Shown piece after piece: positions 1-60,231 of a stretch of DNA of 64,000 nt (positions within the stretch are counted from its first letter, which is position 1; the number at the start of each line of letters is the position of its first letter). Origin of the DNA: an uncultured virus (IMG/VR IMGVR_UViG_3300010352_001897) (Duplodnaviria > Heunggongvirae > Uroviricota > Caudoviricetes); IMG/VR virus record IMGVR_UViG_3300010352_001897, one strand, 5' to 3'. The notes beneath the pieces are model-generated. The model had not been told where the DNA came from. It searched no databases and was given only the letters and a program-made list of their open reading frames with translations. Position numbers and translations under genes: made by a program.

Positions 1-1
1 A

Positions 2-1204
2 AGCACAACTAGCACAACTCCTGTGCAGGTAATCCCTTTCACCAGATACAACTATGTGACTGGCGGAAACAGACAGTTGAAGCTAAATGAAGTTACTAAG
101 AGCAACACCATTGTTATTGGTATGATTAATGAAGGCTTCACTTCTCCTTGGATCGGTCAGGTTCCATATGTTATTACCAGAGCACCTGCAAATGGTTCTG
201 TGATTTCGAGATATGTCACTTCTCCAGTATATCTACAGCTTTTGGGAGGCACTACTGTAACTGATACTTCTACTTTTGACTATGCTAAGGGCTGGTCATT
301 GTTTAAGGATATTAGTGCCGTCAACCTTAACCTCCTATGTGCCGCAGGTACTACTGTAGGTAATTTCGGAAACAGATATGAGGCATTTGAGACTATCAAT
401 ACTTCAGTAATCGTTTCCATGTTGGAAGTTTGTACTGCAAGAAAAGATTGTGTTGCAATCTTTGATCTACCTAAGAGACAGAACATCAGTGATTTGATTG
501 AATTGGTTGAACAGTATGTTCCAAGCATTGGACAGGAATCTGGTGGATCTAATGCTACCTTTGAAAGCTTCTGGGGTGGTATGTTTGACGGTCGTCAGAT
601 GATGTTTGATACCTTCAATAAGAAAGACGTTGAAGTAGCAATTACTGCATTTGTTGCCCAGAATTACACTAATGTATATTTGAAGAATTTCCCTTGGAGT
701 ATTGTTGCGGGTACTACTAGAGGTAGTATTGCTTACCCTTCAAATAGCACTAAGTATCCACGTAGCTACCCTGAGGAAGTTGGGGCATTGTCCAGTGCAA
801 GAATCAACTCTTGCAGAATGTTTGATGGTCAAATTCTTTGGAGTGAAGCAACTCTTCAGGCAAAGAATACTGCATTGAACAGAATGCACGTTGCTTCCTT
901 GCTAGCATACATTTACGGAAAACATCGTAAACAGTTGACTCCATTCATATTTGAACTTAATACCCCTGAGCTTAGGAAGACTGTAACCAACCTAGTCGAG
1001 AGCAACATGGATTACATTAAGTCCAATAAGGGTGTGTATGAATATGTTGTTATCTGTAATGATACTAACAATACTCCAGAGACAATTGACAACAATCAAC
1101 TGATCGTTGACTTGGCAATTGAACCAGCTAAGGGTGTTGAAGTCATCACTTTCAGAAGCACCATATATCGTACAAACGGAATCATTGAAGCAGGCTTACT
1201 ATAA
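2..1204 (+). CDS. gp18: Tail sheath protein, C-terminal part (5' end outside window)
   Basis: Sheath C-terminal motifs (RKDCVAIFD; ALNRMHVASL; FELNT; VICNDTNNTPETIDNNQLIVDLAIEPAKGVEVI); frame open from base 2; followed by tube genes. Confidence 0.93.
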   Translation, partial: STTSTTPVQVIPFTRYNYVTGGNRQLKLNEVTKSNTIVIGMINEGFTSPWIGQVPYVITRAPANGSVISRYVTSPVYLQLLGGTTVTDTSTFDYAKGWSLFKDISAVNLNLLCAAGTTVGNFGNRYEAFETINTSVIVSMLEVCTARKDCVAIFDLPKRQNISDLIELVEQYVPSIGQESGGSNATFESFWGGMFDGRQMMFDTFNKKDVEVAITAFVAQNYTNVYLKNFPWSIVAGTTRGSIAYPSNSTKYPRSYPEEVGALSSARINSCRMFDGQILWSEATLQAKNTALNRMHVASLLAYIYGKHRKQLTPFIFELNTPELRKTVTNLVESNMDYIKSNKGVYEYVVICNDTNNTPETIDNNQLIVDLAIEPAKGVEVITFRSTIYRTNGIIEAGLL

Positions 1205-1252
1205 GTGAGCCTTTTATTTGGTAAAAATAAATAAAAGAAAGGGAAGTTAAAA

Positions 1253-1924
1253 ATGGCATTAGACAAAAGAAATGGATACTTTGTAACGGCAATGTCCTCA
1301 CTTAGGGATCCTATACGCACCTCTCACTGGAGACTCCGTTTTAACGTACCTTTAATCAAGGCCGAAATCGGAGGGGATTTGATTCCTGACGTTAACACTG
1401 ATGATGATATTGCCGTAATGGTAAAGACTTCATCAGTGCCTAAGGTAATTATTAATTCTGTTGAATCTTGGTATATGGGTCAGAAGATTTATTTCCAGAC
1501 CAACACTGAATACGATAAGGAGAGTAACTTCAACATTCAGGAAACTGCAGATGTTAGAGGTTTCAGATTCCTAGGACAGTGGAGCGAACTAGCCCATAAC
1601 ACTGACCTATATCAGCTTGGATCACTAGGTACTTCGGTAATTAATCCAAATACTCAGAGAGGTGTTAACTTGGGCTCTGCTAAGTTCCCAGGAAATGCTG
1701 ATGGCGGTAGAAGTGTTGTTAGGAATAGTGGCTGGATGTTTCTTGAGCTATATGATTACACTACTGGTGAAACAATCCTTAGAGTTGAATACATTAACGT
1801 GTGGCCTTCTTCTTTGGGTGGTTTTGAGCTAGCGTATGAGAATCCTGATCTTGCCAAGTATACTGCAACATTTACTCACGATTACTATCGAATAATTCTT
1901 CCGAATAACGGAGTAATAGTCTAA
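1253..1924 (+). CDS. gp19: Tail tube protein (probably the main tube subunit)
   Basis: Directly after sheath; gp19-like pattern (DPIRTSHWRLRF...YINVWPSSLGGFELAY...FTHDY); TAAATA promoter at 1228-1233, purine-rich leader, own terminator. Confidence 0.85.
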   Translation: MALDKRNGYFVTAMSSLRDPIRTSHWRLRFNVPLIKAEIGGDLIPDVNTDDDIAVMVKTSSVPKVIINSVESWYMGQKIYFQTNTEYDKESNFNIQETADVRGFRFLGQWSELAHNTDLYQLGSLGTSVINPNTQRGVNLGSAKFPGNADGGRSVVRNSGWMFLELYDYTTGETILRVEYINVWPSSLGGFELAYENPDLAKYTATFTHDYYRIILPNNGVIV

Positions 1925-1925
1925 G

Positions 1926-1949
1926 AAAACCCCCGCAAGGGGGTTTTTT
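1926..1949 (+). terminator. Rho-independent terminator
   Basis: AAAACCCCC-GCAA-GGGGGTTTTTT. Confidence 0.9.
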
Positions 1950-1972
1950 ATTTCTAGCAATAAATATAATTA

Positions 1973-2722
1973 ATGCATCTAAACAAGAAAAATGGATATT
2001 TTGTTAGTTCACTTGAAAAAGTAGGTGACCCTATCAGGACTAACCTTTTTAAGGTCCATTTTGATTTCACTGAATTGCGTAGATATGAAGAAGCCCTAGG
2101 AACTAACTTTAATATTTTTGACAGTGAAACTCTTTCACTTATGATTAAGGATTATACTCCACCTGTGGTAGAGATGCATACTGACACTATCTATTATATG
2201 GGAGGTGCCAAAAAGGTACTACCTACTACTCAAGAAGTTGAAGACAGTATGACTCTCACTATTCAAGAAAATAGTAATTTAACTGGATATAAAAACATCA
2301 TGAGATGGATGCAATATTGTGTTAATAATTATTCATATTCTCCTGAAAAAATAGGAGAAGAGGTTTTGCTATTAGGTAGTAACAAGTACAACAATGCAAT
2401 CGGATATGGGGCTCCAATTTATAAGAATAAAGATGATCTCAATATTGCTAATTTTTTCATAAACACCCACACTATGTGTGTTGATATGTATGACTATACT
2501 AGTGGAGAAGCAATAATGCGAGTATCTTATGTTAATATCTTTCCAACTAAAATAACTCCTCCAAAATTAGAATATAATTCAGCAAATTTATATCAATTTC
2601 AGGCGGAATTTAAATATAGTAGATATGTATATACAATCCCAACAAACGTTGCCGATTTCGTATCTAAAAACAATTCAAGCTATTTGGCACAAGCCCCTGC
2701 CCAATGGGGGAATAGTAATTGA
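1973..2722 (+). CDS. Tail tube-like paralog 2
   Basis: Clear paralog of 1253..1924 (KNGYFVSSLEKVGDPIRTNLF vs RNGYFVTAMSSLRDPIRTSHW; YDYTSGEAIMRVSYVNIFP vs YDYTTGETILRVEYINVWP). Confidence 0.8.
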   Translation: MHLNKKNGYFVSSLEKVGDPIRTNLFKVHFDFTELRRYEEALGTNFNIFDSETLSLMIKDYTPPVVEMHTDTIYYMGGAKKVLPTTQEVEDSMTLTIQENSNLTGYKNIMRWMQYCVNNYSYSPEKIGEEVLLLGSNKYNNAIGYGAPIYKNKDDLNIANFFINTHTMCVDMYDYTSGEAIMRVSYVNIFPTKITPPKLEYNSANLYQFQAEFKYSRYVYTIPTNVADFVSKNNSSYLAQAPAQWGNSN

Positions 2723-2731
2723 AGGTTGGGG

Positions 2732-2739
2732 TATAAATA
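2732..2739 (+). promoter_or_regulatory. T4-type late promoter TATAAATA upstream of tnpB
   Basis: Exact T4 late consensus; TAAATATAATTAATG is identical to the sequence before the 1973 gene. Confidence 0.75.
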
Positions 2740-2745
2740 TAATTA

Positions 2746-4026
2746 ATGAAAATTAACGGTTATAAACTTGAATTAGCCCCGAATAAAATACAAGAAATGT
2801 CTTGTATTAAAAGTGCTGGAACTACACGCTTTGCATATAATTGGAAATTAAAACAACTAAATGAACAATATTTAACTACCAAACAAATTAATAAAATTAA
2901 GAATAAATTAGGATCTTCAATTGATTGGCATAAGGACTGGGTCCTTTTAAAAAAAGATCTTCCTTGGATTCGTGAAACATCCAAATGTTGCGGACAATTT
3001 GCATTAAGAAATCTCCAAACCGCTTTTCAGAAATTTTTTTCTAAAAAATCAGGATATCCTAGATTTAAAAAACGAGGAATAAATGACTCCTTTACTGTAA
3101 GTGGACAAGTTATAATAAATTCAAGGTTTATAAAACTTCCTATAATTGGTAAAATTAAACTTAAAGAAAAGAACTATCCAATTCTTGAAGGTAGACTTAA
3201 ACTAAATCAAGCCACAATATCAAGACATTCTGATCGATGGTATGTTTCATTTATTATAAAAGAAGAGATTGATTTACCAAATTTAAATAAAATTCAAAAC
3301 ATTGAAGAATGTGATATTCTAGGCATAGATTTAGGCATTAAAGAGTTAGCAATCACCAGTGAAGGTGAAACATTTGAAAATCCTAAAGCATACAAAAAAC
3401 ACCTCAAAAGATTAAAAAAGTACCAAAGGATGGTTTATCGTAAAGCTAAAGGAAGTAATAACAAGAAGAAAGCAATAACTAAATTGTCAAAGATTCACAA
3501 GAAAGTTGCGGACATCCGTAATGATACTGTGCATAAGCTGACTACATCTTTGGTGAAAGCCAAACCTAAGGTCATAGTTATTGAAACCCTAAAACCGAAG
3601 AATATGTCCAAGAATCATAAACTAGCTTCGGCTGTTTTAGATTCTAGCTTTGGTAAGATTAAGGATACTTTGAAATACAAGTGTAGTTGGGCAGGAATCC
3701 ATTTAATCAAGGCCCCAACCTTCTATGCTTCATCGAAATATTGTTCAATCTGTGGACATAAACACAATGAATTAAAACTATCAGACAGAGAATGGAATTG
3801 TGGTTTTTGTGGAACACATCTCGATAGAGATGTCAATGCCGCAAAGAATCTACAATTCTTAGGTCTTTGGATGATAGATAAACACTTGAGTGAAAGCTCA
3901 ACTAGCGTGAGTTCCACGCAAAGTTACGCTTGTGGAGATGAAAGGTTACAGTTCCTCATGGAACAGTGTTCGTCTATGAAACAAGAATTCAAATCTAAAT
4001 ATTTGTTAGAACGGAATAGTAACTAA
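2746..4026 (+). CDS. tnpB: RNA-guided endonuclease TnpB (IS607-like), catalytic residues intact, no adjacent transposase
   Basis: N-terminal HTH (AGTTRFAYNW), RuvC-I GIDLGIKELA, RuvC-II VIVIETL, Zn ribbon CSICG...CGFCG, RuvC-III DRDVNAAKNL. Confidence 0.95.
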   Translation: MKINGYKLELAPNKIQEMSCIKSAGTTRFAYNWKLKQLNEQYLTTKQINKIKNKLGSSIDWHKDWVLLKKDLPWIRETSKCCGQFALRNLQTAFQKFFSKKSGYPRFKKRGINDSFTVSGQVIINSRFIKLPIIGKIKLKEKNYPILEGRLKLNQATISRHSDRWYVSFIIKEEIDLPNLNKIQNIEECDILGIDLGIKELAITSEGETFENPKAYKKHLKRLKKYQRMVYRKAKGSNNKKKAITKLSKIHKKVADIRNDTVHKLTTSLVKAKPKVIVIETLKPKNMSKNHKLASAVLDSSFGKIKDTLKYKCSWAGIHLIKAPTFYASSKYCSICGHKHNELKLSDREWNCGFCGTHLDRDVNAAKNLQFLGLWMIDKHLSESSTSVSSTQSYACGDERLQFLMEQCSSMKQEFKSKYLLERNSN

Positions 4027-4030
4027 TGTC
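3880..4030 (+). ncRNA. omegaRNA copy 1 (scaffold to 4014, guide from 4015: AATAGTAACTAATGTC)
   Basis: Overlaps tnpB 3' end; similarity to copy 2 stops sharply after TTTGT(T/C)AGAACGG; hairpins 3886-3901 and 3905-3919 covary with copy 2; 5' boundary approximate. Confidence 0.8.
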
Positions 4031-4805
4031 ATATTCTTCATCTGATCTAATTAATACTGGTCGTTATTTTAAGGTGTCTTCTGGATATGTTCCTAACCAA
4101 TTCACTGTCACTATTATAAAAGACGGCGTAAGTGATCAGACGCAGGCGAGTGGCGGAAATCCCCTATATCTACTTAATCTAGAGCCATGGGTAATTGAGG
4201 ATGTGACTCTTCCTCAAGTTAGATTACATATGGCAAATGATATATACATGGACCCCGACACATTAATAAAACCGGACTACATTTTAAATGTAGAAACTAT
4301 GGGGAGATTAGAATTAACAATTAGAGAGAAGAGTGACCTAGCCATCCATCGTTCATTAATTAGGTGTCATAAAGAATTTTTTAACTCTGCATATGAGGGG
4401 ACGGGATCTCTTGGTACTGAATATAGTATTGAAGTCAGATTAAAGGCACAAAGATTTGATGACAATGCCGAAAATGGAGATATTATTCTTGGAGATAATG
4501 TATTCGTATATGGTCGAGCCATTCTTAGAGAAATAGGGAATCCAAAACATGCGTATGGTGAAAAGAATTTTCTACGATATAATGTAGTATTTGACGTTAA
4601 CTGCATGGCAGAGACTTTTCAATTAGACCCTACAATTAAGATGAAAGGGTTCTTAGAAAAGGATAAGAAAGAGAAGATCAGGAGTACAATAGGTAATAGA
4701 ATCATTACCAATAATCCACAACCTCCTCCTCCAACAACTGCAGAAAAAGTGGGTACAGGTGTGGTCAAAACATTAATAGGTGGACCTTTAGGACTTTTGT
4801 TCTAA
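4026..4805 (+). CDS. Tail tube-like / tube initiator (gp54-like) protein
   Basis: Tube-fold-like pattern (PNQFTVTI...IEDVTLP...LELTIRE...YNVVF); position in tail operon; TAATG overlap with tnpB stop. Confidence 0.55.
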   Translation: MSYSSSDLINTGRYFKVSSGYVPNQFTVTIIKDGVSDQTQASGGNPLYLLNLEPWVIEDVTLPQVRLHMANDIYMDPDTLIKPDYILNVETMGRLELTIREKSDLAIHRSLIRCHKEFFNSAYEGTGSLGTEYSIEVRLKAQRFDDNAENGDIILGDNVFVYGRAILREIGNPKHAYGEKNFLRYNVVFDVNCMAETFQLDPTIKMKGFLEKDKKEKIRSTIGNRIITNNPQPPPPTTAEKVGTGVVKTLIGGPLGLLF

Positions 4806-4840
4806 AAATTAGCTTTAGATTTTATATCTAAATATTGTAC

Positions 4841-5728
4841 ATGGGAATAACTGGTGGCGTTTTAGATGACAATATTGATCTTAGTAGGCTTAGAAATGCA
4901 GGACTAAGTGATGCTCAAATTTCTAATATTTTACAAGGTAGCCGAGAGACTATAAGTGTACGTCCTGAAGAAAAGGATCCTTATGTAGAAATTAAGGGAC
5001 TGCCCTCCGGAAGTAGATATTACAAAAATCAGATGGGAATTCCTGTTAAGTTAAAGGGAATGCCATTAAAAGTATCTGATGCCATCACTCTAGAAGCGAT
5101 GGACAATTCAGGTGATGAGTCACTACTTGATGACATATTTAAGGCTCGAATTAAGGGAGTTGACCCTGGACAGATACTTGTTGGGGATGAAACTTACATA
5201 AAGGCATGGCTTAGGGAGCAGACTTTCATTAAGACTCCGTTAGTTAGATCATTTGAATGTGATAAGTGTGGACATTTTAATGAGAGTCGAATAATCACCT
5301 CTAATGATTTCATTGTCTATTATTTGCCTGAGAATATTACTGACCCAATGACGTGCATCTTACCTATTTCACAAAAAGAAGTGAAGATTAGGTTCATGAG
5401 ACGCCACGATAGGGTTAGGATCGAGAATCATGTTAGAGAAAATGATTTTATGAGAAAGCTTACCATTGTTGACACTAAGATATATGAAATAGCGTCTGTA
5501 ATGTATGGAATGAGTATTACTGACGCAACTGAATACATAAAATCATTAAATCCAACTGATTTTGCAGTATTGAATACTTTCTTTCTAAAAATGAATTTCG
5601 GATTCACTGAAAAGGCATTCATCAAGTGCGAAAAGGAGGAGTGCGGTTATTCTTCAATCGTACCCATTCCCTTTCAACCAGGATATTTTCTTCCCAAAAT
5701 TGGACCTGACCTATCTAACCAGGATTAA
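4841..5728 (+). CDS. gp26: Baseplate hub assembly protein / tail assembly chaperone (gp26-like)
   Basis: LPSGSRYY, GDETYIKAWLR, CDKCG and CEKEECG Zn motifs, ILPISQKEVKIRF; ATG 4841 lies 6 nt after TAAATA. Confidence 0.75.
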   Translation: MGITGGVLDDNIDLSRLRNAGLSDAQISNILQGSRETISVRPEEKDPYVEIKGLPSGSRYYKNQMGIPVKLKGMPLKVSDAITLEAMDNSGDESLLDDIFKARIKGVDPGQILVGDETYIKAWLREQTFIKTPLVRSFECDKCGHFNESRIITSNDFIVYYLPENITDPMTCILPISQKEVKIRFMRRHDRVRIENHVRENDFMRKLTIVDTKIYEIASVMYGMSITDATEYIKSLNPTDFAVLNTFFLKMNFGFTEKAFIKCEKEECGYSSIVPIPFQPGYFLPKIGPDLSNQD

Positions 5729-5873
5729 GGCAATATTAGCTAAAGAGCTTAACACATCAGTTATTGATTTTAATAATATGTTCTTTTTTGAAGTGTATGA
5801 GTATATTAAGTATGTTGAGGAAGAAAGAGATAAGGAAAGAATGAAAATGTTACAGAAACAAGCTCAGGGGTAA
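5700..5873 (+). CDS. Small gp51-like protein (57 aa, absent from ORF track)
   Basis: LDLTYLTRIKAILAKELNTSVIDFNNMFFFEVYEYIKYVEEERDKER...; overlaps the gp26 end in the +1 frame; resembles the small gene that follows gp26 in T4-like phages. Confidence 0.6.
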   Translation: MDLTYLTRIKAILAKELNTSVIDFNNMFFFEVYEYIKYVEEERDKERMKMLQKQAQG

Positions 5874-6153
5874 GATTTAGATACCAAGTTGAATTTAAAC
5901 TCTTTAATATAATTGAAATCTTCAATCACCTTTTCAATTATTTTTGTAGTTGAAGGCAACCCTTCGTCAATGAAGTCATATTCCTCATCATATTTGCATC
6001 TGCCATTAAAGTAATATTTTAAGAATAGCATGTCAGATATGGTAGATTCGAACCAAGGGATTGTTGTACCATATCCTGCAATCCAATCTAATGAATTTCC
6101 TGTTGAGCTAATTATTGATTGTAGATTTGAAATATTTCCAATTAGACACGACC
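5864..6153 (-). pseudogene. C-terminal half of a split caspase-like (DUF6642-type) peptidase gene
   Basis: Begins (G)SCLIGN right after the omegaRNA end; continues DWIAGYGTTIPWFESTISDMLFL, resembling the GY...W.ES tail of DUF6642-type proteins. Confidence 0.65.
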
Positions 6154-6310
6154 GTTCTGACAAATCTATGCAAAACTATACAAGCCTGAATTTTGTGATT
6201 TGAATTCTTGCTTCATAGACAAACACTGTTCCGTGAGGAACTGTAACCTTTCATCTCCACAAGCGTAACTTTCCGTAGAACTTACGGTAGATTGGCTTTT
6301 GCCAATGTGT
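6136..6310 (-). ncRNA. Orphan omegaRNA copy 2 (scaffold ends 6152, guide from 6151 downward: TCGTGTCTAATTGGAA)
   Basis: Homologous to 3880-4014; perfect hairpins at 6291-6306 and 6273-6287; same AGAACGG terminus. Confidence 0.78.
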
Positions 6311-6477
6311 TTATCTATCATCCAGAGTCCGAGAAATTGCAAGTTATTCGCGGCATTCACATCCCTATCGAGAGGTGTTCCGCAAGAGCTACAAGTCCAT
6401 TCTCTATCTGACAGTTTTAAGTCATTGTGTTTATGTCCACAGATCGAGCAATACTTTGATGAAGCATAGAATGTAGG
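6166..6477 (-). pseudogene. tnpB: tnpB 3' remnant (Zn ribbon, RuvC-III and omegaRNA only)
   Basis: PTFYASSKYCSICGHKHNDLKLSDREWTCSSCGTPLDRDVNAANNL, close to the intact TnpB C-terminus. Confidence 0.92.
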
Positions 6478-6863
6478 AGGAATAATTTGAGTATGAATTA
6501 AATCATATGCATTATCAATTCTTTTAATGAAGTCATCTACATTATCTGAACCATATAAATCACTTTCATCTCCAGCTAATCCTAGAAGATCTAATATTAC
6601 TTTAGTATTTCTATCGGCAAAATTTACAGAAGGATTTTTGTGAGCATTTTTTCATCATATTCAGTATGGGCATTATACCATAATTCTTCTAATCTATTAG
6701 CTTCATCTCTATCAAAACCTTTTGTGCTAATATATTTCATATATGTATCATACATATCATTAATTCTAGATAATTCGTCACTATCATCTTCTACATTAAA
6801 TGAAAAGGTAGTACTTTCCAATATAACTGATTCGTAAATATGTCCTTTATATATAATTTTCCT
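6478..6863 (-). pseudogene. Decayed cargo gene with KIIYKGHIYE N-terminus, fused in frame to the tnpB remnant
   Basis: Start codon position reads AGG (6863-6861) behind an AAGGA SD; frameshift in the A6 run near 6647-6652; downstream frame runs without a stop into the tnpB remnant. Confidence 0.6.
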
Positions 6864-7265
6864 GTTATTCCTTTTAATATCTATGGAATATGTTTAAAAA
6901 AATAATGTATATCTTGGTCTTCATTATATACATAAAATATGGAGGCTTGGCTTGGCGTATATGTAACTTTATGGGGCACCCAATTAATTGTTTCAATACC
7001 TTCGCTTATGTAAAAATATTTCAATACCCCTTTTAACATTTTCTTTGGATAACTATTATGATCGATATATTTTTCAAACTCTTCTTTTGAAATTTCAGTT
7101 GAATCATGTAGATCATTTTCATCAGGATCATATACTTTTTGAGCCATTTCTGTAGCATCTCCAAATATTTTACATATTGGAGCATTACTGTTAGAATTAC
7201 CGACACTCACACAATTGCCAATATATTTAGATGCCTCGTAAATATGTCCTTTATATATAATTTTC
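6832..7265. repeat. Exact 30-bp direct repeat (6832-6861 and 7236-7265) encoding KIIYKGHIYE on the minus strand
   Basis: TCGTAAATATGTCCTTTATATATAATTTTC occurs twice. Confidence 0.95.
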
Positions 7266-7267
7266 AT
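6881..7267 (-). CDS. Hypothetical protein with MKIIYKGHIYE N-terminus
   Basis: 128-aa ORF with AAGGA SD, immediately downstream of the ART gene. Confidence 0.8.
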   Translation of the reverse strand: MKIIYKGHIYEASKYIGNCVSVGNSNSNAPICKIFGDATEMAQKVYDPDENDLHDSTEISKEEFEKYIDHNSYPKKMLKGVLKYFYISEGIETINWVPHKVTYTPSQASIFYVYNEDQDIHYFFKHIP

Positions 7268-7270
7268 TAA

Positions 7271-7963
7271 TTATTCCTTATTAACATTAGGAGTGTTAGA
7301 AAATTCTCCACTATTCTCAACTGATTTTATTTGTGAACTAGATAATACAGTCCATTCATCCGTACCATAAGATAGTCCACCTGCACCCATGGCGTATACT
7401 CCATCGTACTTATTTTCTTTAATAATATCGTCAATAACTTCACCCATCATACCATAAGCTAATTCTTCTTGTTCTTCATCATATCTTTCATTAAGTTCAG
7501 ATATATTAGTTTCATCAGTCAAATCATAAAGATTAGTTATCTTTAAGTAATATTTCTTTAGTCTACCGAATCTTTTAGCATATTCTTCATTCTTAGTAAA
7601 ATAGAAACCTACTCCTAAATTACCACCATTATATCCTTCAGAGTAATCATTATCTGCGTCGAAATCTTCTCTATCCCAAATATGTTGAAATTCATCAAAA
7701 TCAGTATATGTGCCGTGATAAAATACAACAGGTTGCCCTTTTTCGTCAACTGTAACCGAATTACCGAACCAATTCCAGAAATTAGAGATACCTTCTGGAG
7801 TTTTGGCAATAGGTAGACCTAATGAATTAGTAGTTGGTTTAGAGTTATTATCTACTTCTAGAGTAGGCACAACAGACATATTATTAAAGTTGCCTCTATT
7901 AAACCTAATAATATGTCTATCTTCCAGTTGTTCATAAACATAACCCTTATAGATAACTTTCAT
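7271..7963 (-). CDS. ADP-ribosyltransferase, ART-PolyVal-like, stand-alone
   Basis: FWNWFGNSVTVDEKGQPVVFYHGT, GVGFYFT, YDGV...DEWTVLSSSQIKS signature; ATG 7963 lies 5 nt after TAAATA (7974-7969). Confidence 0.75.
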   Translation of the reverse strand: MKVIYKGYVYEQLEDRHIIRFNRGNFNNMSVVPTLEVDNNSKPTTNSLGLPIAKTPEGISNFWNWFGNSVTVDEKGQPVVFYHGTYTDFDEFQHIWDREDFDADNDYSEGYNGGNLGVGFYFTKNEEYAKRFGRLKKYYLKITNLYDLTDETNISELNERYDEEQEELAYGMMGEVIDDIIKENKYDGVYAMGAGGLSYGTDEWTVLSSSQIKSVENSGEFSNTPNVNKE

Positions 7964-8109
7964 GACTATATTTATTAATGGCCTCATCTATAACTTCGTT
8001 TTTTAAATTTTTAAGTCCTATTACTATTTTAAACAGAGTAGTCAGGTCTTCTCCTCCATAATAACTTGGTAGCATCTGCTTTGTTTCATACAGAAGTGGC
8101 TTTCCTACT

Positions 8110-8452
8110 CTATCAATATTCCTTTTTACCATAAAGAACCTTTTTATTTGTAGGAAAGGTTTTAACTAATAATGATTTCAAATTAATATCCCCCTCCAAT
8201 TTCAGATCTAAGTCTTGTAGTATTGTTACTTTTAACTCCATGACCTGCAATGTAACATATTGAAGTATTTTTTGTTTTTGCGAAAATGCCTAACCAATGT
8301 TCTAGGTCTTTTGCATCATTATAGTTTCGTTACGATACCTCTAATCCCAATTCATGAGTAAGAGCTTCAATGAATGACCTTACTGATGAATTTTTTGCAA
8401 TGTCTGTACTCCAAACTCCTTCTAAAATTATAATGTCAGGATTGGTTTTCAT
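8110..8452 (-). pseudogene. N-terminal half of the split caspase-like (DUF6642-type) peptidase gene
   Basis: MKTNPDIIILEGVWS...SVRSFIEAL...VS*RNYND..DLEHWL...ICYIAGHG...GILI(G); TAA at 8332-8330 and two homopolymer frameshifts; TAAATA 6 nt upstream. Confidence 0.65.
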
Positions 8453-8515
8453 ACATATTATTTAAAGAAAATTTTCTTAAACTTAATATTTAAAAAATCA
8501 AATAAATATAAATTA

Positions 8516-10420
8516 ATGGCTATTTCTAACGAAGAACTATTACGTAGTATCAATTTAATGACTAAGGCGTTGACTGATTTCCAATATCAGTCTAAGTTGA
8601 ATGGTACTAATTTGGTTGATAGTTTAGAACGAACACATAGAATGCTGGCAAGAGCGGCAATTGAAACTGGATTTTCTCCAGAAGCTCTTAATAAATTATT
8701 GCTTAAGTTCGTAAAAAGTAATTCTGCAGTTGGTGATCAGGCAAAGTTAACACAAGTATTGACTGAATTTAATAAGAGAATTCCTGATTATGAGAGACTT
8801 GCTAATATTATGTCAGCAGAGGAATTTAATAAATTCGTCAATAGGGCGTTAGAGAAGATTAAGAATACTCCAATTAAATTAAATACGAAAGAAAATATTT
8901 CTTTTTTAAGTAAGGCAATAGCTAGGGCCAATAGGGAATATGCAACTACTGGGTTTGGCAGAATTGCTAGTGATTTCTATAGAAACGCAACAACTGCTCA
9001 GTTACGCGAATTGAGATTAATGCGACAGTCTATTGAATCTGGAAATAAGATAGGCGATAATAAAGGTGGAATGCTTAGTGGATTGCTCGCAGGTACTGCC
9101 GCACAAATGGGTGACATTATTATGGAAAATGCCGGATTCGGTCAGCTTCCAGGTAAGATGATGGGAGTAATTGATGCCTTTAATAAATTAAGAGAGGCTA
9201 GAAAACTTGATAAAGATCAAGCCGCAAATGAAAGAAATGCGGCTCTTCTTGCTAATAGTAGAAAAACTGAAGCCGCATACGGTGAACAGAAAAGAGTTGT
9301 TACTGAGAGTAAAGACATTCTTGTGGATGTTGGAATGCAAAGAGATGAACTTACTGGAAGTCTCCTTGATGCATTTAAGGATGTTCTATCTAAGACTGAT
9401 TTGAGTGAAAAATTAAAACAGAAATATGAACGAGATCTTATGGCAGGAACTTTGACTGAAAATCAGTTAAAGAAAATTACCGCAAGCTGGAAACGCGCAC
9501 TTGGGGATGATATTACTCCAGAAGATAAAAAAGAAATGACCCAATTTAGGTCCAATATTATGGCGGATATTGCATCATTGAATGAAATGAATAAGTCTAT
9601 TGAAGAGGCTACTCAGATTTATAATGAAGAAGCTAAGAGAGAACTTGATGCATTAGTTACTGCAACTAAGGCTAGGGCTGACGTTGATAATATGATATTC
9701 AGTGAACTTGAGGGTCAGTTTGCTAGAATTGATAAAGAATTAAAGGGAAGTACTTTCAAAAACCTATCAGCAGATGAATTAACAGCACTTAGAGAGCAAT
9801 TACAGGCAGACGTAACTGAGAGTGTAAGTAAGAAATATGGAATAAATGTAAGTGAATCAAAGGGAATGTACAATGATCATACTGAGCGTGTTAATCAGAA
9901 TTTAACTGAATTGGGAATTGAAGCGTCTGATGAATTAAAGGCCGCATTGGATTATAATAAACAGTTCGCTGAAAGATTAGCTGGATTGTCAAGAATATTT
10001 CAAAATACTGAACGCGAACCTAGAGTAAGAATTCCTGAAATTAGAAGTGCAAGTATTTCGACCAGAGTGACACCAAGACCTATATCTTCAACCAGAAATA
10101 CAGTATACACTGAACCTGACCTATTATCCTTTGAGGGAGTTCCTGCGTTGTCGGGTAGCGGACTTTCAGTGCCTTCAGATCGAGTAGCAACACCTCAGCC
10201 AAGTAGATCAAGTGAAGCTGAAATTCAAAATAGACAAGATGCGTTGGAAACAATTAGAACTTCTGAAAGAAGATCTGACGACACCTTTAAATTGCTTGAA
10301 AAAGTGTTTGGTCAAAATGCAGATAAGCCAATTAAGGTTCAAGTAACGAACTGGCCTGCTCCAAGTGTTTCTCAAAACCTAAGCAGTAATGAGTCACCAA
10401 CTGTGCCGTTGATAAGTTAA
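8516..10420 (+). CDS. Probable tape measure / hub protein (gp29-like)
   Basis: 634 aa, predicted alpha-helical and charged; lies between the gp26/gp51-like genes and the gp48/gp53-like genes. Confidence 0.55.
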   Translation: MAISNEELLRSINLMTKALTDFQYQSKLNGTNLVDSLERTHRMLARAAIETGFSPEALNKLLLKFVKSNSAVGDQAKLTQVLTEFNKRIPDYERLANIMSAEEFNKFVNRALEKIKNTPIKLNTKENISFLSKAIARANREYATTGFGRIASDFYRNATTAQLRELRLMRQSIESGNKIGDNKGGMLSGLLAGTAAQMGDIIMENAGFGQLPGKMMGVIDAFNKLREARKLDKDQAANERNAALLANSRKTEAAYGEQKRVVTESKDILVDVGMQRDELTGSLLDAFKDVLSKTDLSEKLKQKYERDLMAGTLTENQLKKITASWKRALGDDITPEDKKEMTQFRSNIMADIASLNEMNKSIEEATQIYNEEAKRELDALVTATKARADVDNMIFSELEGQFARIDKELKGSTFKNLSADELTALREQLQADVTESVSKKYGINVSESKGMYNDHTERVNQNLTELGIEASDELKAALDYNKQFAERLAGLSRIFQNTEREPRVRIPEIRSASISTRVTPRPISSTRNTVYTEPDLLSFEGVPALSGSGLSVPSDRVATPQPSRSSEAEIQNRQDALETIRTSERRSDDTFKLLEKVFGQNADKPIKVQVTNWPAPSVSQNLSSNESPTVPLIS

Positions 10421-19100: not shown

Positions 19101-21661
19101 ACACAACTAAACTTTAGATTTCCAATAGTAAATCCGCTAGCCGAATTTCCGACTAGTGAATTTACTGATATTTTTTGATAATCAATAGATGCAAGTGGAA
19201 TCATTGTCCATTCAGTTTCAATTGAATTGTTACTATTTGCTATCCTTAGCTTATAATAAAAAGATCCAGGAAGAGTAATTACTTGGTTAGTATTTGAGAC
19301 TACAGTTATTGCGCCGTCTCCAGGAATGTATTTCAGACTATATGTTACTTTTAAAGTATCTTGAGATGAAACTAACAATTCACCATATTTGTTGTAATTG
19401 TTAGTTTCGTATCTATTTCTCCTAATACCCAATGCATAAACTGAATAATCTATTCCAGAATATGTAGTAGATATTATTGGATGAGTTGCTAGTGAATATT
19501 TTCCAGTGTAGTTATTAAAATCATTAATTAGCGAGTCGAATGAAATTTCTAATATCCCAAGTCCGCTATTACCTAAAACTTCAAAAGTCAGGTTATAATT
19601 AGGATTCATTATTACGTTTCGAGTAATTGATGAATTTTCACTCATAAAGAGTGTATTGTTGCCAACAATAATATTTCCAACCATATCCCAAGGAGAACAA
19701 GCAAAAGAAAACGTAAATGTTTTAGTTGCCACAGCAGAATCATTAAAACCATTCATATGTGAAATTGCCTTAACAATTATGGTAGAATCTCCCCTATTAG
19801 GGAATATGTAATGATCTGCAACATATTTTGTTGAATATTTTGTAGGAGTCGTCCCATCCAAAGTATAATAGATATCTCCCCCTAAATTTGTGATTTCAAG
19901 AGCTAACCTATCAGAACTAATAGCATTACTTGTAACAATTGTTGGAGTAGAAAGAGTATTTGTTTTTACAATGTTCAACGGAAAGGTTATTACGTTACTT
20001 TTTAAATACTCACCATTATATGCAAAGAATTTTAAAGTACATGCGTCGTAAATATTATAAAATGATCCAGAATGTGCAACATAGCAGTTACCTGCAGAAA
20101 TATTTGGAACATCTCCATTTGTAGTGAAGTATATGTCAATTCCTTCAGGGCTAGTAAACTGAATGGTAGTATGGTCATCCAGACCATCTAATGTCAATAT
20201 GTCATATGATACTGAAGGATCTGCGGCCTTTTTGTATACTAGTATTGAGTATGTAATGTTTTCAGAATTCTTTGTCACATTTCCGGTATTTGCGGAATAT
20301 GCAGTAATTACATATGTACCGGGAGTTGTGATATTAATTGGAGTTGAATATGTTCCGCTCGCATATGCGCTCCCATTTTTCGTAATTGAATATTCTATTG
20401 TGGATGGATCTGAATTAATATCCAACATCCCTATCACTAAAGGATCAGTACTCAGACTAACTTCATGATCAACAGGTACGCTATTTACTGTAGGGAGAAT
20501 AATTGGTGAAATGTTCTTGGTTAAATATGCACCAAAATTTACATCAATTGTTGCTGAATCTGAAAATGTTGCAATAATTTCAGAAATATTCATAGTTGGA
20601 ATATCTGAGAAGTCTCTAGATCTAATAACAGGCTTTAATAAAGCCCCATTCGTGTTGATTGCGATTGGGTTTGTGGTATACTTATGTCCATTACATATTA
20701 CGATGAATGAAATTACTTGAATGTTTGATACCACCTTAACTGAAGATATTATTTTAAATGGATTGTTTGAATTAATTGAATATATGTTCTCTACAGTATT
20801 GTGCTCTTTTTTTGGATAAAATATTGCGTTTAATGCTCTATTATTGTTAATAAGTGTATTGTACGATATTAGTCTATTATCATATTTGAAGTTATCCAAA
20901 TATCTGCCATCATAACCTACATTTGACAAATTCAATGGCTTTATATCTTTAGACCCTGCATAGTTGAAACTTAGTTTATCTGTTTCGCCCACATATGGCA
21001 ATATTTCTACATCTTTATCATTGTAATATTTTCCATTTTTCTTATAAACAAGTGTTATTATTCTTTCATCTTCACTAAGCAAGGAAGATTGACATGTTGA
21101 ATCTATTGAATTTCCAATTCTACCGCCAATAGCCCCTCTATTAATTATTTCATCTAGGTAGCTCACTGGATTTCGTATTTTGGATTGATGAGGTGCTTTT
21201 AATAGTACAATTCCTATTTCAATATTGTCATTAGCGTATCCGAAAAAATCTTCCTGTCCTGTATACGAATCCCCTAATAGATCAGTAGAGATTTTTTCAA
21301 ATAAATCAAAACTTCTCATATAATAATTTGTAGCCCTAGAAAAGGAATCAATTGATATTTCAAATGAACTGAGGCCAGATACATTATCCAACATTGTCAT
21401 TGAACTAACACCTGGATTGGTGTATATTTTCCGCTGACCGTCACTTAGCTGATCAGTGGAAGGTTTAAATTCCAAATGATCATTTACAACAATTTTCTGA
21501 CCGAACACTGCAGGCGTTTCAATAAAGGCATCAGTTGATGTGGTTGCACCTTGGGCATTGAAATCAATTTTCCAATTTAAATTGCTTACGGTTTGGCTTG
21601 TTGCAATATCAAAATTGGTTAGTAATTCTGGTATGCTCTCAGTAATAGTTGTAGTTGGCAT
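19097..21661 (-). CDS. Structural protein with chitobiase/Fn3-like (CHB_HEX_C) repeats
   Basis: IYFTTNGDVP and IYYTLDGTTPT...Y motifs; TAAATA 6 nt upstream. Confidence 0.65.
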   Translation of the reverse strand: MPTTTITESIPELLTNFDIATSQTVSNLNWKIDFNAQGATTSTDAFIETPAVFGQKIVVNDHLEFKPSTDQLSDGQRKIYTNPGVSSMTMLDNVSGLSSFEISIDSFSRATNYYMRSFDLFEKISTDLLGDSYTGQEDFFGYANDNIEIGIVLLKAPHQSKIRNPVSYLDEIINRGAIGGRIGNSIDSTCQSSLLSEDERIITLVYKKNGKYYNDKDVEILPYVGETDKLSFNYAGSKDIKPLNLSNVGYDGRYLDNFKYDNRLISYNTLINNNRALNAIFYPKKEHNTVENIYSINSNNPFKIISSVKVVSNIQVISFIVICNGHKYTTNPIAINTNGALLKPVIRSRDFSDIPTMNISEIIATFSDSATIDVNFGAYLTKNISPIILPTVNSVPVDHEVSLSTDPLVIGMLDINSDPSTIEYSITKNGSAYASGTYSTPINITTPGTYVITAYSANTGNVTKNSENITYSILVYKKAADPSVSYDILTLDGLDDHTTIQFTSPEGIDIYFTTNGDVPNISAGNCYVAHSGSFYNIYDACTLKFFAYNGEYLKSNVITFPLNIVKTNTLSTPTIVTSNAISSDRLALEITNLGGDIYYTLDGTTPTKYSTKYVADHYIFPNRGDSTIIVKAISHMNGFNDSAVATKTFTFSFACSPWDMVGNIIVGNNTLFMSENSSITRNVIMNPNYNLTFEVLGNSGLGILEISFDSLINDFNNYTGKYSLATHPIISTTYSGIDYSVYALGIRRNRYETNNYNKYGELLVSSQDTLKVTYSLKYIPGDGAITVVSNTNQVITLPGSFYYKLRIANSNNSIETEWTMIPLASIDYQKISVNSLVGNSASGFTIGNLKFSCV

Positions 21662-21673
21662 TTAAAATATTTA

Positions 21674-23659
21674 TTATAGGATGCCGTCTAGATTATATCC
21701 GTATTTGACGTGAGCCATTTCGTTAGTGTATCTATTAACCCAAGCGAGGTCAATAACTAATTGCTTAGTCTCGTCCATGAAATACGCATATGAATTATTT
21801 GCATCAATTAAAATTCTAGGGTCATTAAATTCAATTTCAGTTTTAAGTTGACTAATTATCTGACTAGAATTAAAGTCTTCAAATACCTCAAACAAATTCC
21901 TAACAATACTAACACCAAAGGCCAAGTTAAAAGGAATGTCTCCAATTGGAGTAGAAAGAATGTTTATTAAAGCCTGATAGATTGCAGTATCATCAATAAT
22001 TATTGTAGGACCTATCCAACCAATGTCCATACTATAGGTTGGTATGTTTGATAGGGTATCCTGTCTAATTTGAGAATTTGTCTTTGAATTAGTTGCAGAC
22101 ATAAAGAATGACCCACCAATTAAGATGTTCTTTTCTGCTATTTTTGAATATCCATAATATTCGTCATTGATCACTGCAAGTACTTTACTATTTTTAGTAT
22201 AAAAAGGGCCTGAATATAGTATTCCTGATGTCATGGGATCTGAACCATCGGTAGTATAGTAGATTTTAGAGGCAGAAGGAATAGCTTTGACTATTTCTAC
22301 TTGAACACCGTTTCCACCCTGATCAGGATAGATTCCATCAATATTTGGAGTTCCTAATACGTTAATTGTTAGTATTTCGACGGGGTATCTTACCAACACT
22401 GTGCTATGAGACATTCCACTTTCGAAACATGTTTGATTTTTTGCTATCGCCTTAACTACATACAATCCGTCGTGAGGGATCTTATACGAACCTCCATTGT
22501 AGACAAATTGAGAGTTTGTAGTAGGTGAAGTATCATCTAATGTAAAATATATAATAGCGTCACTTACTGAGGATGTAAGGGTAATTGTATTCTGAATATC
22601 GTCAAATATTATTGTAGGATTTTCACATTTACAAGTCAACAACACTGTTTCTGAAGATATTTCGCTATCAACAAATCCTGGAGCAACAACATATGCAACA
22701 ATTGTGGAATGTCCGACTGACGATATTATGAGTGGAGAGGTGTATTCTGAATAAGAACCTCCATTAACACTATACATCACAATCCCTAGAATATTTGGGT
22801 TTGAAATGGTGACTGTTATGAAATCTTCATTTTGGTAGTTATTTGTGGATATTTCTGGAGATTCTAATTTCTTAATTGGCAATGCATCTATGTCATATAT
22901 TACGGAATCATTTATTATACAATTCCCAGATGCCATTATTGTGTTGGCAGATATTGAGCCGTTAATTGTTGCTCCATTTAAAGAAACTGTCGCCGTTGTA
23001 TATAGTACGTTAGCGTCTAATGTACCAACAATGTTAAAATTATTATTTTCAAAATTAAATATAATATTCTCTTCAGATAGATTATTTAAAAATGTGAAAT
23101 ATATGTTATTGAAATATATTGTATCTGAACCAATAAAATTCAATATAACCAATGATCCTTGTGGGAAATTAAATACGAAATTAGTACATGTTTGAAGATT
23201 TAAAATATCCTGCGAATCAAGGGTCAGTATATTAATTTCATTATTGCCTATAAATGTGTAAATGTTAGAACTAAAATTCTTTGTACTGTTATCTGTAAGT
23301 GTCCTTAAATATGAGGAGTAGCCTATTAATTGTTCATGCAATGAATCGAATTCGAAGGGATTTTGTTTTAATTTACTATTGAAATTATATATTGTAGGAT
23401 GTGGAGAATCTAGCGATGTTCCATAAATTACAGGTCCATTATATATTGACGTATTGAACAGTGTGCAAGTATTTCCAATAACAGAATATTCTTGATTATA
23501 CTGAGACATTTTCCCAATGATATTTGTTCCATTTCTAATGTTAATAGATTTGGCAACCAAATTTCTAGCAATTGTTAAATTGGTACTAGAAGTCTTCGTA
23601 AATGTATTACAAAATACCTGTAAAGTCTTTATAGTACTTAATGCTTCAGAAATTTTCAT
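21674..23659 (-). CDS. gp25: Baseplate wedge gp25 domain fused behind choice-of-anchor-A-like and CHB_HEX_C domains
   Basis: C-terminal AIYQALINILSTPIGDIPFNLAFG...EIEFNDPRI (gp25); IYFTLDDTSPT, IYYTTDGSDP; ENIIFNF...ATINGSISANT. Confidence 0.7.
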   Translation of the reverse strand: MKISEALSTIKTLQVFCNTFTKTSSTNLTIARNLVAKSINIRNGTNIIGKMSQYNQEYSVIGNTCTLFNTSIYNGPVIYGTSLDSPHPTIYNFNSKLKQNPFEFDSLHEQLIGYSSYLRTLTDNSTKNFSSNIYTFIGNNEINILTLDSQDILNLQTCTNFVFNFPQGSLVILNFIGSDTIYFNNIYFTFLNNLSEENIIFNFENNNFNIVGTLDANVLYTTATVSLNGATINGSISANTIMASGNCIINDSVIYDIDALPIKKLESPEISTNNYQNEDFITVTISNPNILGIVMYSVNGGSYSEYTSPLIISSVGHSTIVAYVVAPGFVDSEISSETVLLTCKCENPTIIFDDIQNTITLTSSVSDAIIYFTLDDTSPTTNSQFVYNGGSYKIPHDGLYVVKAIAKNQTCFESGMSHSTVLVRYPVEILTINVLGTPNIDGIYPDQGGNGVQVEIVKAIPSASKIYYTTDGSDPMTSGILYSGPFYTKNSKVLAVINDEYYGYSKIAEKNILIGGSFFMSATNSKTNSQIRQDTLSNIPTYSMDIGWIGPTIIIDDTAIYQALINILSTPIGDIPFNLAFGVSIVRNLFEVFEDFNSSQIISQLKTEIEFNDPRILIDANNSYAYFMDETKQLVIDLAWVNRYTNEMAHVKYGYNLDGIL

Positions 23660-25551: not shown

Positions 25552-25570
25552 AGTTCGGAAATACCCATTC

Positions 25571-25600
25571 CAAATATTTATTGTGGATCTGCAATAAATA
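25571..25600. promoter_or_regulatory. Back-to-back late promoters
   Basis: TATTTA at 25575-25580 (minus) and TAAATA at 25595-25600 (plus), in an imperfect palindrome between divergent genes. Confidence 0.7.
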
Positions 25601-59085: not shown

Positions 59086-60198
59086 TTATTGCTCCAAGTC
59101 TAACACTTCCTCTTCAACATAATCTTCGGATGCCAATCCAGAACCTCCGAAAGAAAATCTTTCCTTTACCTTCTCATTGATCAATGGTAGGATTTCCTTG
59201 ACAACCTCAGGATGCTTCCAAACTACCCCTTCGATAGTTGGGTACTCTCCCTTGGCATTTGCACCCTTATATATTAACAAATATTCAGTACTTCTTGGCG
59301 ATTTCCTCTTAATAATCGTCTCGTCTTCCAAAAATGCATCAAGCCCGTAGTATTGGTTAATTCCGTTTTCAAAGTTCAAATAAATGTCAACTTCAGAATT
59401 CTCAAGAGTCTTTCTAGACTTTGGATTCTTAGCGGTAATGAAAATACCAATCTGCTTCTTATCATCATTCTTTGCGGCTTTCTTTTTCAAAGAGATGATA
59501 GTACTTGCACCGTACTTTCCACCACCTCCACCAGAAACAGCCTGAGTAGGAACATATGCACCAATGACTTCATAAACATGGTTTACTGGAATAAGAGGAA
59601 TCTTAAGAACGGATAGATCCACACATAAATCCCTAAAGAGTTCTCTGAGTTGCTGTTGCTTGCTCATGTCCCTCTTAACTTCGCCCTTGTCAAGGTTCTT
59701 TTCAGCACCCTTAGACGATAACATACCAATAGAGTCAACTACGAGCAACAATTTGAATCTCTGTGCGTAGTTACTTTCATTAACTTCCTTGTTATAATAT
59801 TCCTTATACTTATCAACAATTGCATATGACTGAAGTCTCAAATCCTCAATTGTCTTAACAGGAAGGATTTGATAATGAACATCCTTTATCCATCCAAGTG
59901 GCTTAAAGGTATCTTCATCAACTGCACCTTCTGTTTCAAAGTAAACAACACAATATCCCATCTTCATTGCGTTGTGACAAATAAACTTAGTAAATAGTGA
60001 TTTACCTACCGACTCAATACCTGCAAACATTGTTGCCTTGTTATTAGGTATTCCCTTAAACATATCACCCGAGATCAATGCATTAAGGATATATGAACCA
60101 GTAGAAATCCACTCGTCGGTGATCCCTCTGAGATCACCTGCCTTAGTTAAATATTCGTTACCTGCCGATGCCACTATCTTTGAAAAATTAAACGCCAT
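59086..60198 (-). CDS. uvsX: RecA-like recombinase
   Basis: STGSYILNALISG, AGIESVGKS, VVDSIGML, NHVY, SGGGGGKY. Confidence 0.95.
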   Translation of the reverse strand: MAFNFSKIVASAGNEYLTKAGDLRGITDEWISTGSYILNALISGDMFKGIPNNKATMFAGIESVGKSLFTKFICHNAMKMGYCVVYFETEGAVDEDTFKPLGWIKDVHYQILPVKTIEDLRLQSYAIVDKYKEYYNKEVNESNYAQRFKLLLVVDSIGMLSSKGAEKNLDKGEVKRDMSKQQQLRELFRDLCVDLSVLKIPLIPVNHVYEVIGAYVPTQAVSGGGGGKYGASTIISLKKKAAKNDDKKQIGIFITAKNPKSRKTLENSEVDIYLNFENGINQYYGLDAFLEDETIIKRKSPRSTEYLLIYKGANAKGEYPTIEGVVWKHPEVVKEILPLINEKVKERFSFGGSGLASEDYVEEEVLDLEQ

Positions 60199-60231
60199 GT
60201 TATACTCCTTGTCATAGAAGTATAACAAATA

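Follow-up and report, generated by a model that had tools for sequence, protein, structure and literature searches.

A transposase-less TnpB-omegaRNA cassette between tail genes of an uncultured T4-like phage: anatomy of a candidate RNA-guided homing element

Cas12 descends from TnpB, a nuclease whose natural role is still under study. The subject here is a tnpB gene, together with its guide-RNA (omegaRNA) scaffold, carried by an uncultured, T4-like phage from wastewater; the DNA is IMG/VR record IMGVR_UViG_3300010352_001897, and the whole stretch analysed, 64,000 nucleotides (nt) in length, is referred to as the window. The gene is wedged between a second tail-tube paralogue (tube-2) and a third tube-like gene, and this region comprises the following features.

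1973..2722, + strand: tail-tube paralogue 2 (tube-2), matching phrog_45 (tail tube) at E 5.8e-19
2705..2710, + strand: G-rich left flank TGGGGG, the presumed target-adjacent motif (TAM), which fits the TGGG/GG reported for IS607-type TnpB and TnpA_S
2709..2718, + strand: left copy of a 10-bp direct repeat, GGAATAGTAA, made up of GG and target nt 1-8
2719..2731, + strand: 13-nt spacer TTGAAGGTTGGGG, an inverted copy of a tnpB-internal sequence
2733..2748, + strand: phage gene-start signal ATAAATA-N6-ATG before tnpB, a 16-mer identical to that at the start of tube-2 (1960-1975)
2746-4026, + strand: tnpB open reading frame (ORF) of 426 amino acids (aa), with RuvC triad D195/E280/D362 and a zinc finger
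3850..4014, + strand: guide-RNA scaffold with the terminal sequence ...UUUGUUAGAACGG; it overlaps tnpB at the gene's 3' end, and its 5' limit is approximate
4013..4022, + strand: right copy of the direct repeat GGAATAGTAA, made up of the terminal GG of the element and target nt 1-8
4015..4030, + strand: guide template AATAGTAACTAATGTC, covering the ancestral tube-2 end, its stop and the start of the next gene; all copies of the element diverge exactly here
4026..4805, + strand: third tube-like gene, from the ORF list, whose ATG overlaps the tnpB stop (TAATG)

The tnpB product was matched by the Pfam families OrfB_IS605 (1.7e-22), Cas12f1-like_TNB (9.9e-21) and HTH_OrfB_IS605 (1.1e-8) and by the NCBIfam model NF040570 for guided_TnpB (280.9 bits, with a cut-off of 100), and PHROGs agreed on TnpB. 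In an alignment to the TnpB of ISDra2, residues D195, E280 and D362 stand opposite the catalytic D191, E278 and D361, and the CxxC...CxxC zinc finger is complete. The D191A and E278A forms of ISDra2 TnpB are reported to be dead variants (PMC8612924). At 13 of the 216 columns with at least 90% conservation the protein deviates from the family, which is in the same range as for equally distant relatives; with no excess of changes, it carries no signal of decay. Its family is populous, with 1513 matches at E<=0.001, more than 100 of them full length at 53-77% identity, and shares a conserved C-terminal tail of about 50 aa. Homologues occur in 424 named phage records, and a scan of 185,579 species genomes found no family member closer than 43%.

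The right end of the element was placed with the help of a second tnpB copy in the window, 5'-truncated and decayed, which aligns with the first at 82% identity over aa 321-418 (tblastn) and 85% over 275 nt (blastn).

6152-6490, - strand: second tnpB copy, comprising the last ~100 codons without a start codon and a scaffold that is complete, its terminal hairpin included
6136-6151, - strand: guide template of the second copy, TCGTGTCTAATTGGAA, directly after its scaffold end

These two copies and those in contigs L004, L005, L007 and L011 all end TTTGTYAGAACGG, with the right end ...GAACGG, and then continue into six different flanks; as all six diverge from the next base on, the element ends between 4014 and 4015. 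A consensus fold of their last 165 nt contains 29 pairs, 10 of which show compensatory changes (single folds were also computed). An Rfam scan of 2500-4300 at E values up to 10 returned two chance-level matches, with no scaffold family and no group I intron, and a second IMG/VR pattern scan for right ends recovered only the three loci already known. In the cassette between the tail genes, the last scaffold hairpin is without its apical 26-30 nt, the basal CAAAU/AUUUG being kept; the apical part is present in five of the six DNA copies, and its coding trace (...QNxxLHSFA) in 18 of 29 protein relatives. This deletion removes the family stop codon, so that the tnpB ORF crosses the right end of the element and stops on the ancestral NSN-TAA, within the old TAATG, which leaves the next gene coupled. 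The guide template that follows is unique in the window at up to three mismatches, save for one chance-level match.

The junction into which the cassette is set can be reconstructed. The tube-2 protein, 26% identical to that of tube 1 (1253-1924; E 2e-29), has a conserved C-terminus, since among its 11 homologues seven have QWGNSN as their last residues and an eighth QWGYSN. The gene ends TGG GGG AAT AGT AAT TGA (2705-2722), and the DNA past the right end of the element reads AAT AGT AAC TAA TG (4015-4028), the TAA overlapping the ATG of ORF 4026-4805. The insert therefore spans about 2711-4014, the last tube-2 codons AAT AGT AAT TGA (2711-2722) lie inside inserted DNA, and the empty site is reconstructed as CAATGGGGG followed directly by AATAGTAACTAATGTCA, with the insertion point between them. 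A viral relative (L002), whose tube-2 is 67% identical in protein, has no tnpB here and reads CAATGGGGATATAGTAACTAATGTCA, identical to the reconstruction at 24 of 26 bases; in its junction, ...CAATGGGGATATAGTAACTAATGTCAATT, the tube stop TAA and the start codon ATG of the next gene likewise overlap. Because this relative matches the reconstructed site, the right-hand copy of the repeat is ancestral; the left-hand AAT AGT AAT TGA is newly acquired DNA by which the C-terminus of the tube protein is restored. The guide template is identical in L002 at 15 of 16 positions. The cassette is thus present in one and absent from the other of two genomes between the same conserved genes, the comparison resting on a single relative. 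Searches for further relatives gave no DNA match to window 1-8000 among 50,697 named phage records, no tblastn match there with either tube-2 or the downstream protein, no usable relative when IMG/VR was scanned for peptide patterns taken from tube-2, the downstream protein and a tube-2 alignment, and no occurrence in IMG/VR of the exact 20-nt reconstructed empty site.

Much of this anatomy had been proposed in an earlier, sequence-only reading of the window. Its statements about the tube-2 end, the DNA following the right end, the 23-nt gap between the tube stop and the tnpB ATG (2723-2745), and the TATAAATA contained in that gap at 2732-2739 are all correct; the right end lies where it had assumed and the three RuvC acidic residues are intact, aligned with the ISDra2 catalytic triad. 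Its reconstructed empty site was found in a relative lacking tnpB, and its proposal that the left junction re-encodes the tube C-terminus (NSN-stop) in DNA that mismatches the guide also holds, though on this single relative. The second copy, the gene-start signal of the phage ahead of tnpB, the trimmed hairpin, the run of tnpB across the right end and the composite nature of the left junction had escaped it.

The left junction is a patchwork, in which GG and target nt 1-8 are followed by 13 nt copied in inverted orientation from within tnpB and then by the start signal. The two GGAATAGTAA copies, found in a repeat search, are 100% identical at a spacing of 1304. The stretch 2718-2731 equals the reverse complement of 3713-3726 at 13 of 14 positions, with a perfect core of 11 nt; in 64 kb this 11-mer is seen nowhere else, where 0.36 occurrences would be expected at up to one mismatch. 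Some 11-mer match was also obtained with 104 of 2000 shuffled leaders, so that the statistics for a filler are modest; the spacer nonetheless looks like templated filler from break repair. Taken as a potential target, the resident left junction reads GGGG followed by AATAGTAATTGAAGGT, with 5 mismatches to the 16-nt guide. IS607 is described as making no duplication beyond GG (PMC13565253), and the exact 10-bp repeat, GG with 8 extra repeated bases, was therefore unexpected. L005, at 60% identity, is the one further near relative that is complete; there, GG and 7 nt are repeated, and the last codon and stop of the upstream gene are preserved; the repeated words in L005 and in L058 are also promoter-like, that in L005 being the start-signal motif. 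No general rule emerged from TnpB loci at large, since repeats of at least 8 nt, shared by the DNA before the ATG and that following the gene, were found at 21 of 116 complete loci compared with 26 and 33 of 116 in two controls, and the anchored repeats of the window, L005 and perhaps L058 are taken to be individual cases.

Imprecise repair after cleavage by TnpB is the preferred, if unproven, origin of this junction. By such a route the TAM and the first 8 target nt would have been kept on the left broken end, the 13-nt filler would have been copied in inverted orientation from within tnpB, and the tube-2 gene would have supplied the 16-nt start signal by copying; through the orphan scaffold, at a distance of 2 kb, the same nuclease would gain a second target. 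The second copy lends no support to the idea of a scar, as a copy of its guide prefix (5 nt or more) is absent upstream of its truncated left side. The full proposition, an RNA-guided homing element that is adapted to the phage, independent of a transposase and marked at its left junction by the repair scar of a TnpB-induced break, is put forward tentatively and seems rather unlikely in its entirety. The same left junction also invites a regulatory explanation, in which TnpB-omegaRNA would bind the 8-nt seed match without cutting and tune the expression of its own gene or of the tail operon in the manner of TldR. A TAM-like GGGG and a perfect 8-nt guide match do lie ahead of the tnpB start signal, at a distance of 14 nt, and TnpB-derived TldR repressors exist (10.1101/2023.11.30.569447). 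However, TldRs are nuclease-dead, having lost RuvC catalytic residues that are intact here, binding to an 8-nt match is conjectural, and flanking repeats did not prove to be a feature of TnpB loci in general; we consider regulation of this kind most improbable.

The signal that precedes tnpB belongs to the phage. The pattern ATAAATA-N6-ATG has 10 matches in the window compared with 0.81 expected, a number reached in 0 of 100 shuffles; they lie at 1960, 2733, 10422, 13625, 27175, 32026, 39299 and 51323 on the plus strand and at 21659-21674 and 25566-25581 on the minus strand. The TATAAATA as such is depleted in the window (4 occurrences, 12 expected). Bearing this start signal, tnpB is wired into the expression grammar of the phage. 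Judged from the genes that bear it, we infer the signal to be a late one, and its short spacing to the ATG suggests leaderless or near-leaderless late transcripts. A hairpin with a T-run, CCCCCGCAAGGGGG TTTTTT, forms a terminator within 1929-1975, between tube-1 and the start signal of tube-2, and no terminator-like site was found between tube-2, tnpB and the next gene; these three are therefore probably co-transcribed.

With regard to lineage, no Resolvase or Y1 transposase domain was detected in the 51 ORFs of the window or in the 4 ORFs of the adjoining 4 kb, which are supplied by a JGI metagenome contig (L001) that is identical to window 1-8719 and extends it upstream; this and all other statements of absence cover these 68 kb, the full genome being probably much longer. 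The earlier assertion that both tnpA and a left end of an insertion sequence (IS) are missing is thus upheld in the 55 ORFs examined, and the search for a serine recombinase that it had suggested, made in the window and the 4 kb upstream, gave no Resolvase. The 35 nt from the element boundary to the ATG, which consist of the target copy, the 13-nt inverted copy and the start signal, bear no likeness to the ~90-nt left end shared by L008, L009 and L015, and no left end of the IS607 kind is recognisable. A terminal GG as in IS607 is present on both sides, with TGGGGG as the left flank and GAACGG at the right end. Among 22 viral relatives, a TnpA with Resolvase and MerR domains is encoded directly upstream of tnpB in five (L010, the nearest at 48% identity, L012, L013, L018 and L023), the same serine TnpA-tnpB arrangement is found in Microcystis phage Ma-LMM01, and a Y1 transposase occurs in none of the 22 loci, for which 42 of 57 candidate ORFs were scanned. 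For the IS607-type CboTnpB, a TAM of TGGG and a scaffold end of UCGG are reported, self and target being told apart at position -3 (10.1101/2023.11.20.567912), and the G-rich TAM predicted here agrees with that published rule. Features of IS200/IS605 were not found, there being no Y1_Tnp, a G-rich left flank and too low a curated score, and the Rfam scan of 2500-4300 contained no intron family such as would mark an IStron. Given the CGG end after a G run coupled with the serine TnpA of relatives, the anatomy points to an IS607 lineage.

Other arrangements were observed among these relatives. In L008 and L015 (45% identical), at ~2865-2920, the last hairpin and the ...TAGAACGG end of another scaffold lie directly upstream of the left end, so that members of the lineage also insert immediately behind the GG with which an older copy ends. 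A degenerate scaffold fragment precedes the truncated tnpB of L007, and in L012, a viral contig of 299 kb, two tandem ORFs with Resolvase and MerR domains (1738-2337 and 2387-2989) stand upstream of one tnpB.

From the anatomy of the cassette, which is observed, we infer its activity. It seems somewhat probable that this transposase-less, left-end-less TnpB-omegaRNA cassette of IS607 lineage persists in the phage as an RNA-guided homing element. The serine transposase and the left end would have been lost, with the cassette becoming fixed between tube-2 and the third tube-like gene, and tnpB would be transcribed with the late tail genes, its RNA being processed into the guide. In a cell co-infected by a cassette-free relative, TnpB would cut 15-21 bp beyond the GGGG-adjacent junction, if the cut positions relative to the TAM are those given for ISDra2 (PMC8612924). 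The break would be repaired from the tnpB-bearing genome by recombination of the UvsX/gp32/RuvC type, and the cassette would be copied in, a TnpA-independent, 'non-restorative' homing. Genes for repair machinery that such an event would be able to use are encoded in the window:

52625-53314, - strand: RuvC-like gene (Pfam RuvC, 4.1e-7)
56383-57357, - strand: gp32 gene (Pfam gp32, 1.1e-32)
59086..60228, - strand: UvsX/RecA-like recombinase (Pfam RecA, 9e-9)

The resident genome would itself be spared, at the right end because the guide match there follows ACGG rather than GGGG, and at the left junction because only target nt 1-8 are kept there. At the same time, the 8-nt target copy would keep the conserved QWGNSN end of the tube protein, and the trimmed hairpin, by dropping the family stop, would leave the old TAATG to keep the next gene translationally coupled. 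The label 'domesticated' given to the nuclease by the sequence-only reading found no support, as no sign of a benefit to the phage was seen, the second copy is decayed, and the family occupies other sites in the same samples.

Metagenomic strains of the phage provide a further view of the locus, which is present in runs labelled activated sludge and wastewater. In four runs, each from a different study (2016-2025), there are contigs with tnpB that span one junction or both (X2 record 12, X3 records 18 and 20, X4 record 26), and over 1000-7500 no contig of the four runs has a joint that skips tnpB; these contigs speak to the presence of the cassette and not to its absence. In the comparison of this phage with the X3 strain, tnpB contigs differ at 49 of 1273 nt and flank contigs at 28 of 2211 nt, a difference of about threefold, where the contigs have a depth of 3-4x and could be contaminated by other tnpB copies.

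Several of these observations weigh against homing. The roughly threefold divergence of tnpB is the opposite of what recent co-conversion would leave. The empty site of L002 has A in place of G at TAM position -1 and a second mismatch at guide position 1, so that TnpB may be unable to cut this relative. Deletion of the hairpin apex could weaken the guide RNA, and the second copy is dead, as expected of an ordinary decaying selfish element. As for the lineage on which the proposal draws, the protein falls below the curated cut-offs of both IS607_TnpB (226.7 bits, cut-off 350) and IS200_TnpB (291.4 bits, cut-off 425) in NCBIfam, and the absence of tnpA pertains to 68 kb of the probably far larger genome.

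The main rival explanation accounts for a number of the same facts by immobility. An IS607-type element would have inserted at the GG of the tube-2 end, lost tnpA and its left end, and been stranded there, kept by drift and because its deletion would disturb the coupled downstream tube-like gene, the ATG of which overlaps the tnpB stop. The lack of tnpA and of a recognisable left end, the decay of the sister copy in the window, the trimming of the scaffold hairpin and the excess divergence of tnpB between strains are all consistent with such a fate. On the other side stand an intact ORF of 426 aa with catalytic and zinc residues and no excess of change at conserved columns, and the acquisition by tnpB of a phage start signal, neither of which is decisive, together with a scaffold core that is conserved and covarying and two junctions that are unchanged in strains from 2016 to 2025. 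A stranded insertion is regarded as possible but doubtful.

The second copy has further features of its own. Contigs from three runs break at 6151/6153 into unrelated sequence and thus reveal further contexts; in the same samples the TnpB family is inserted elsewhere too. In run X1, the summed contig depth over 3387-4037 and 5991-6207, which cover the 3' part of tnpB and the scaffold, is 125-213 compared with ~41 in the flanks, and diverged contigs are found there, for example one with 40 differences in 349 nt; from the raised depth and the diverged contigs, several related tnpB/scaffold copies exist in the X1 sample. On sequence grounds, the scaffold of the second copy could serve the intact TnpB in trans as a second guide. 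Nearby, a direct repeat of 41 nt, 88% identical between 6821-6861 and 7225-7265, duplicates the start of ORF 6881-7267 (- strand), and the duplicated start precedes the frameshifted, start-less stretch in which the tnpB remnant lies. The impression is of a short region in decay, bounded by the tail genes and an ART-PolyVal gene (7271-7987, - strand). A 17-nt identity with the start of ORF 6881-7267 had raised the prospect that the first codons of tnpB were captured from a phage gene, and this was dropped when L005 and two protein relatives proved to share the N-terminal pattern.

Rather than for its own copying, TnpB might be kept as a weapon of competition, destroying or delaying co-infecting relatives by cutting at their tube junction, with the copying of the cassette as a by-product; the orphan guide at 6136-6151 may supply a second target. 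The guide does address a constrained site, with 15 of 16 nt the same in a relative of 67% tube identity, another scaffold, with a guide of its own, is found at a distance of 2 kb, and interference competition is the reported role of an intron endonuclease of phage PhiPA3 (PMC11620839). No sign of any benefit was seen, however, and sequence data alone do not separate this explanation from homing; we judge it improbable.

Homing by TnpB is itself not a new idea. A review treats TnpB as a homing nuclease and considers TnpA-independent 'non-restorative homing' into co-infecting phages or plasmids (PMC13565253), and TnpA-independent, TnpB-driven spread of IS605, or gene drive, is reported in plasmids (PMC11870625; discussed in PMC13565253, Table 1). 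Published experiments deal with drive in plasmids and with the restorative homing that follows excision by a transposase; a limited literature search returned no demonstration of TnpB homing between phages. RNA-guided homing by TnpB is thus already in print and not yet shown in phages. The plasmid drive shares with the present cassette the transposase-free spread of a TnpB insertion to insertion-free copies; it differs in having been shown for plasmids and IS605, the phage case being only a theoretical row in the review's table.

Of the known systems, the IS607 TnpB-omegaRNAs, represented by CboTnpB of the C. botulinum IStrons, resemble the cassette in their ...CGG end, the G-rich left flank ending in GG, the TAM TGGG and a guide taken from the first ~16 nt past the right end, and the role published for them is the cutting of the empty site to trigger recombinational copying; relatives of the window TnpB also adjoin a serine TnpA, as in IS607. 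Unlike these elements, the cassette lacks a group I intron, a serine transposase within 68 kb and any recognisable left end, duplicates 8 extra target nt at its left junction, scores below the IS607_TnpB cut-off, and resides in the tail operon of a lytic-type phage under a phage start signal. The best solved natural relative is ISDra2 TnpB of IS200/IS605 (E 1.8e-54 over aa 6-370; PDB 8BF8/8EXA/8H1J; PMC8612924), which has the same domain order, D-E-D triad and zinc finger and a scaffold that overlaps the 3' end of the gene. ISDra2 differs in its Y1 TnpA, AT-rich TAM TTGAT and subterminal hairpins, in place of which the window element has a G-rich flank, a CGG end and the ~50-aa C-terminal tail.

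Among phage endonucleases, the Seg and Mob proteins of T-even phages are likewise encoded by genes wedged between conserved genes and present or absent among relatives; they are expected to cut the gene-less allele during co-infection, repair follows, and nearby sequence differences protect self (PMC13565253). They are protein-only GIY-YIG/HNH enzymes, whereas the window nuclease is of the RuvC type and RNA-guided, with self and non-self set mainly by the insertion itself. The second copy, in keeping a complete scaffold and its own guide without a working tnpB, resembles the standalone omegaRNAs that were reportedly described by Altae-Tran in 2021. Unlike these, it is visibly a decayed, 5'-truncated element, and its use in trans by the TnpB of the first copy is only a possibility.

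The window is AT-rich, with a GC content of 35%, and encodes a T4-like portal, a prohead protease and a gp23-type capsid protein, as well as a DnaB-like helicase, a family-B polymerase, a tail sheath and the two tail-tube paralogues. The third tube-like gene downstream of tnpB has no Pfam or PHROG match; a feature search linked it at 0.94 to Phage_TTP_2-bearing clusters, which is a lead only. Within the family-B DNA polymerase ORF (60232-63975, - strand, 1247 aa), aa 414-431 give a weak match to LAGLIDADG_3 (E 2e-4), a stretch that may be an intein or a homing-endonuclease insert and hence another selfish element in the genome.

The locus offers a clean natural case for the predicted homing between co-infecting phages without a transposase, with a defined empty site, a defined guide and a predicted TAM, and its 426-aa nuclease is compact and paired with a naturally shortened guide scaffold. 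The resident allele keeps the end of an essential gene while escaping the guide, and the cost of the cassette would be reduced by the spare gene end, the start signal of the host phage and the restored stop/start coupling. If the left junction did arise by repair of a TnpB-induced break, patchwork junctions with seed copies of 7-9 nt beside the TAM would be a general scar of imprecise homing, and such scars would account for TnpB cassettes that have shed their left ends while the host genes remain intact.

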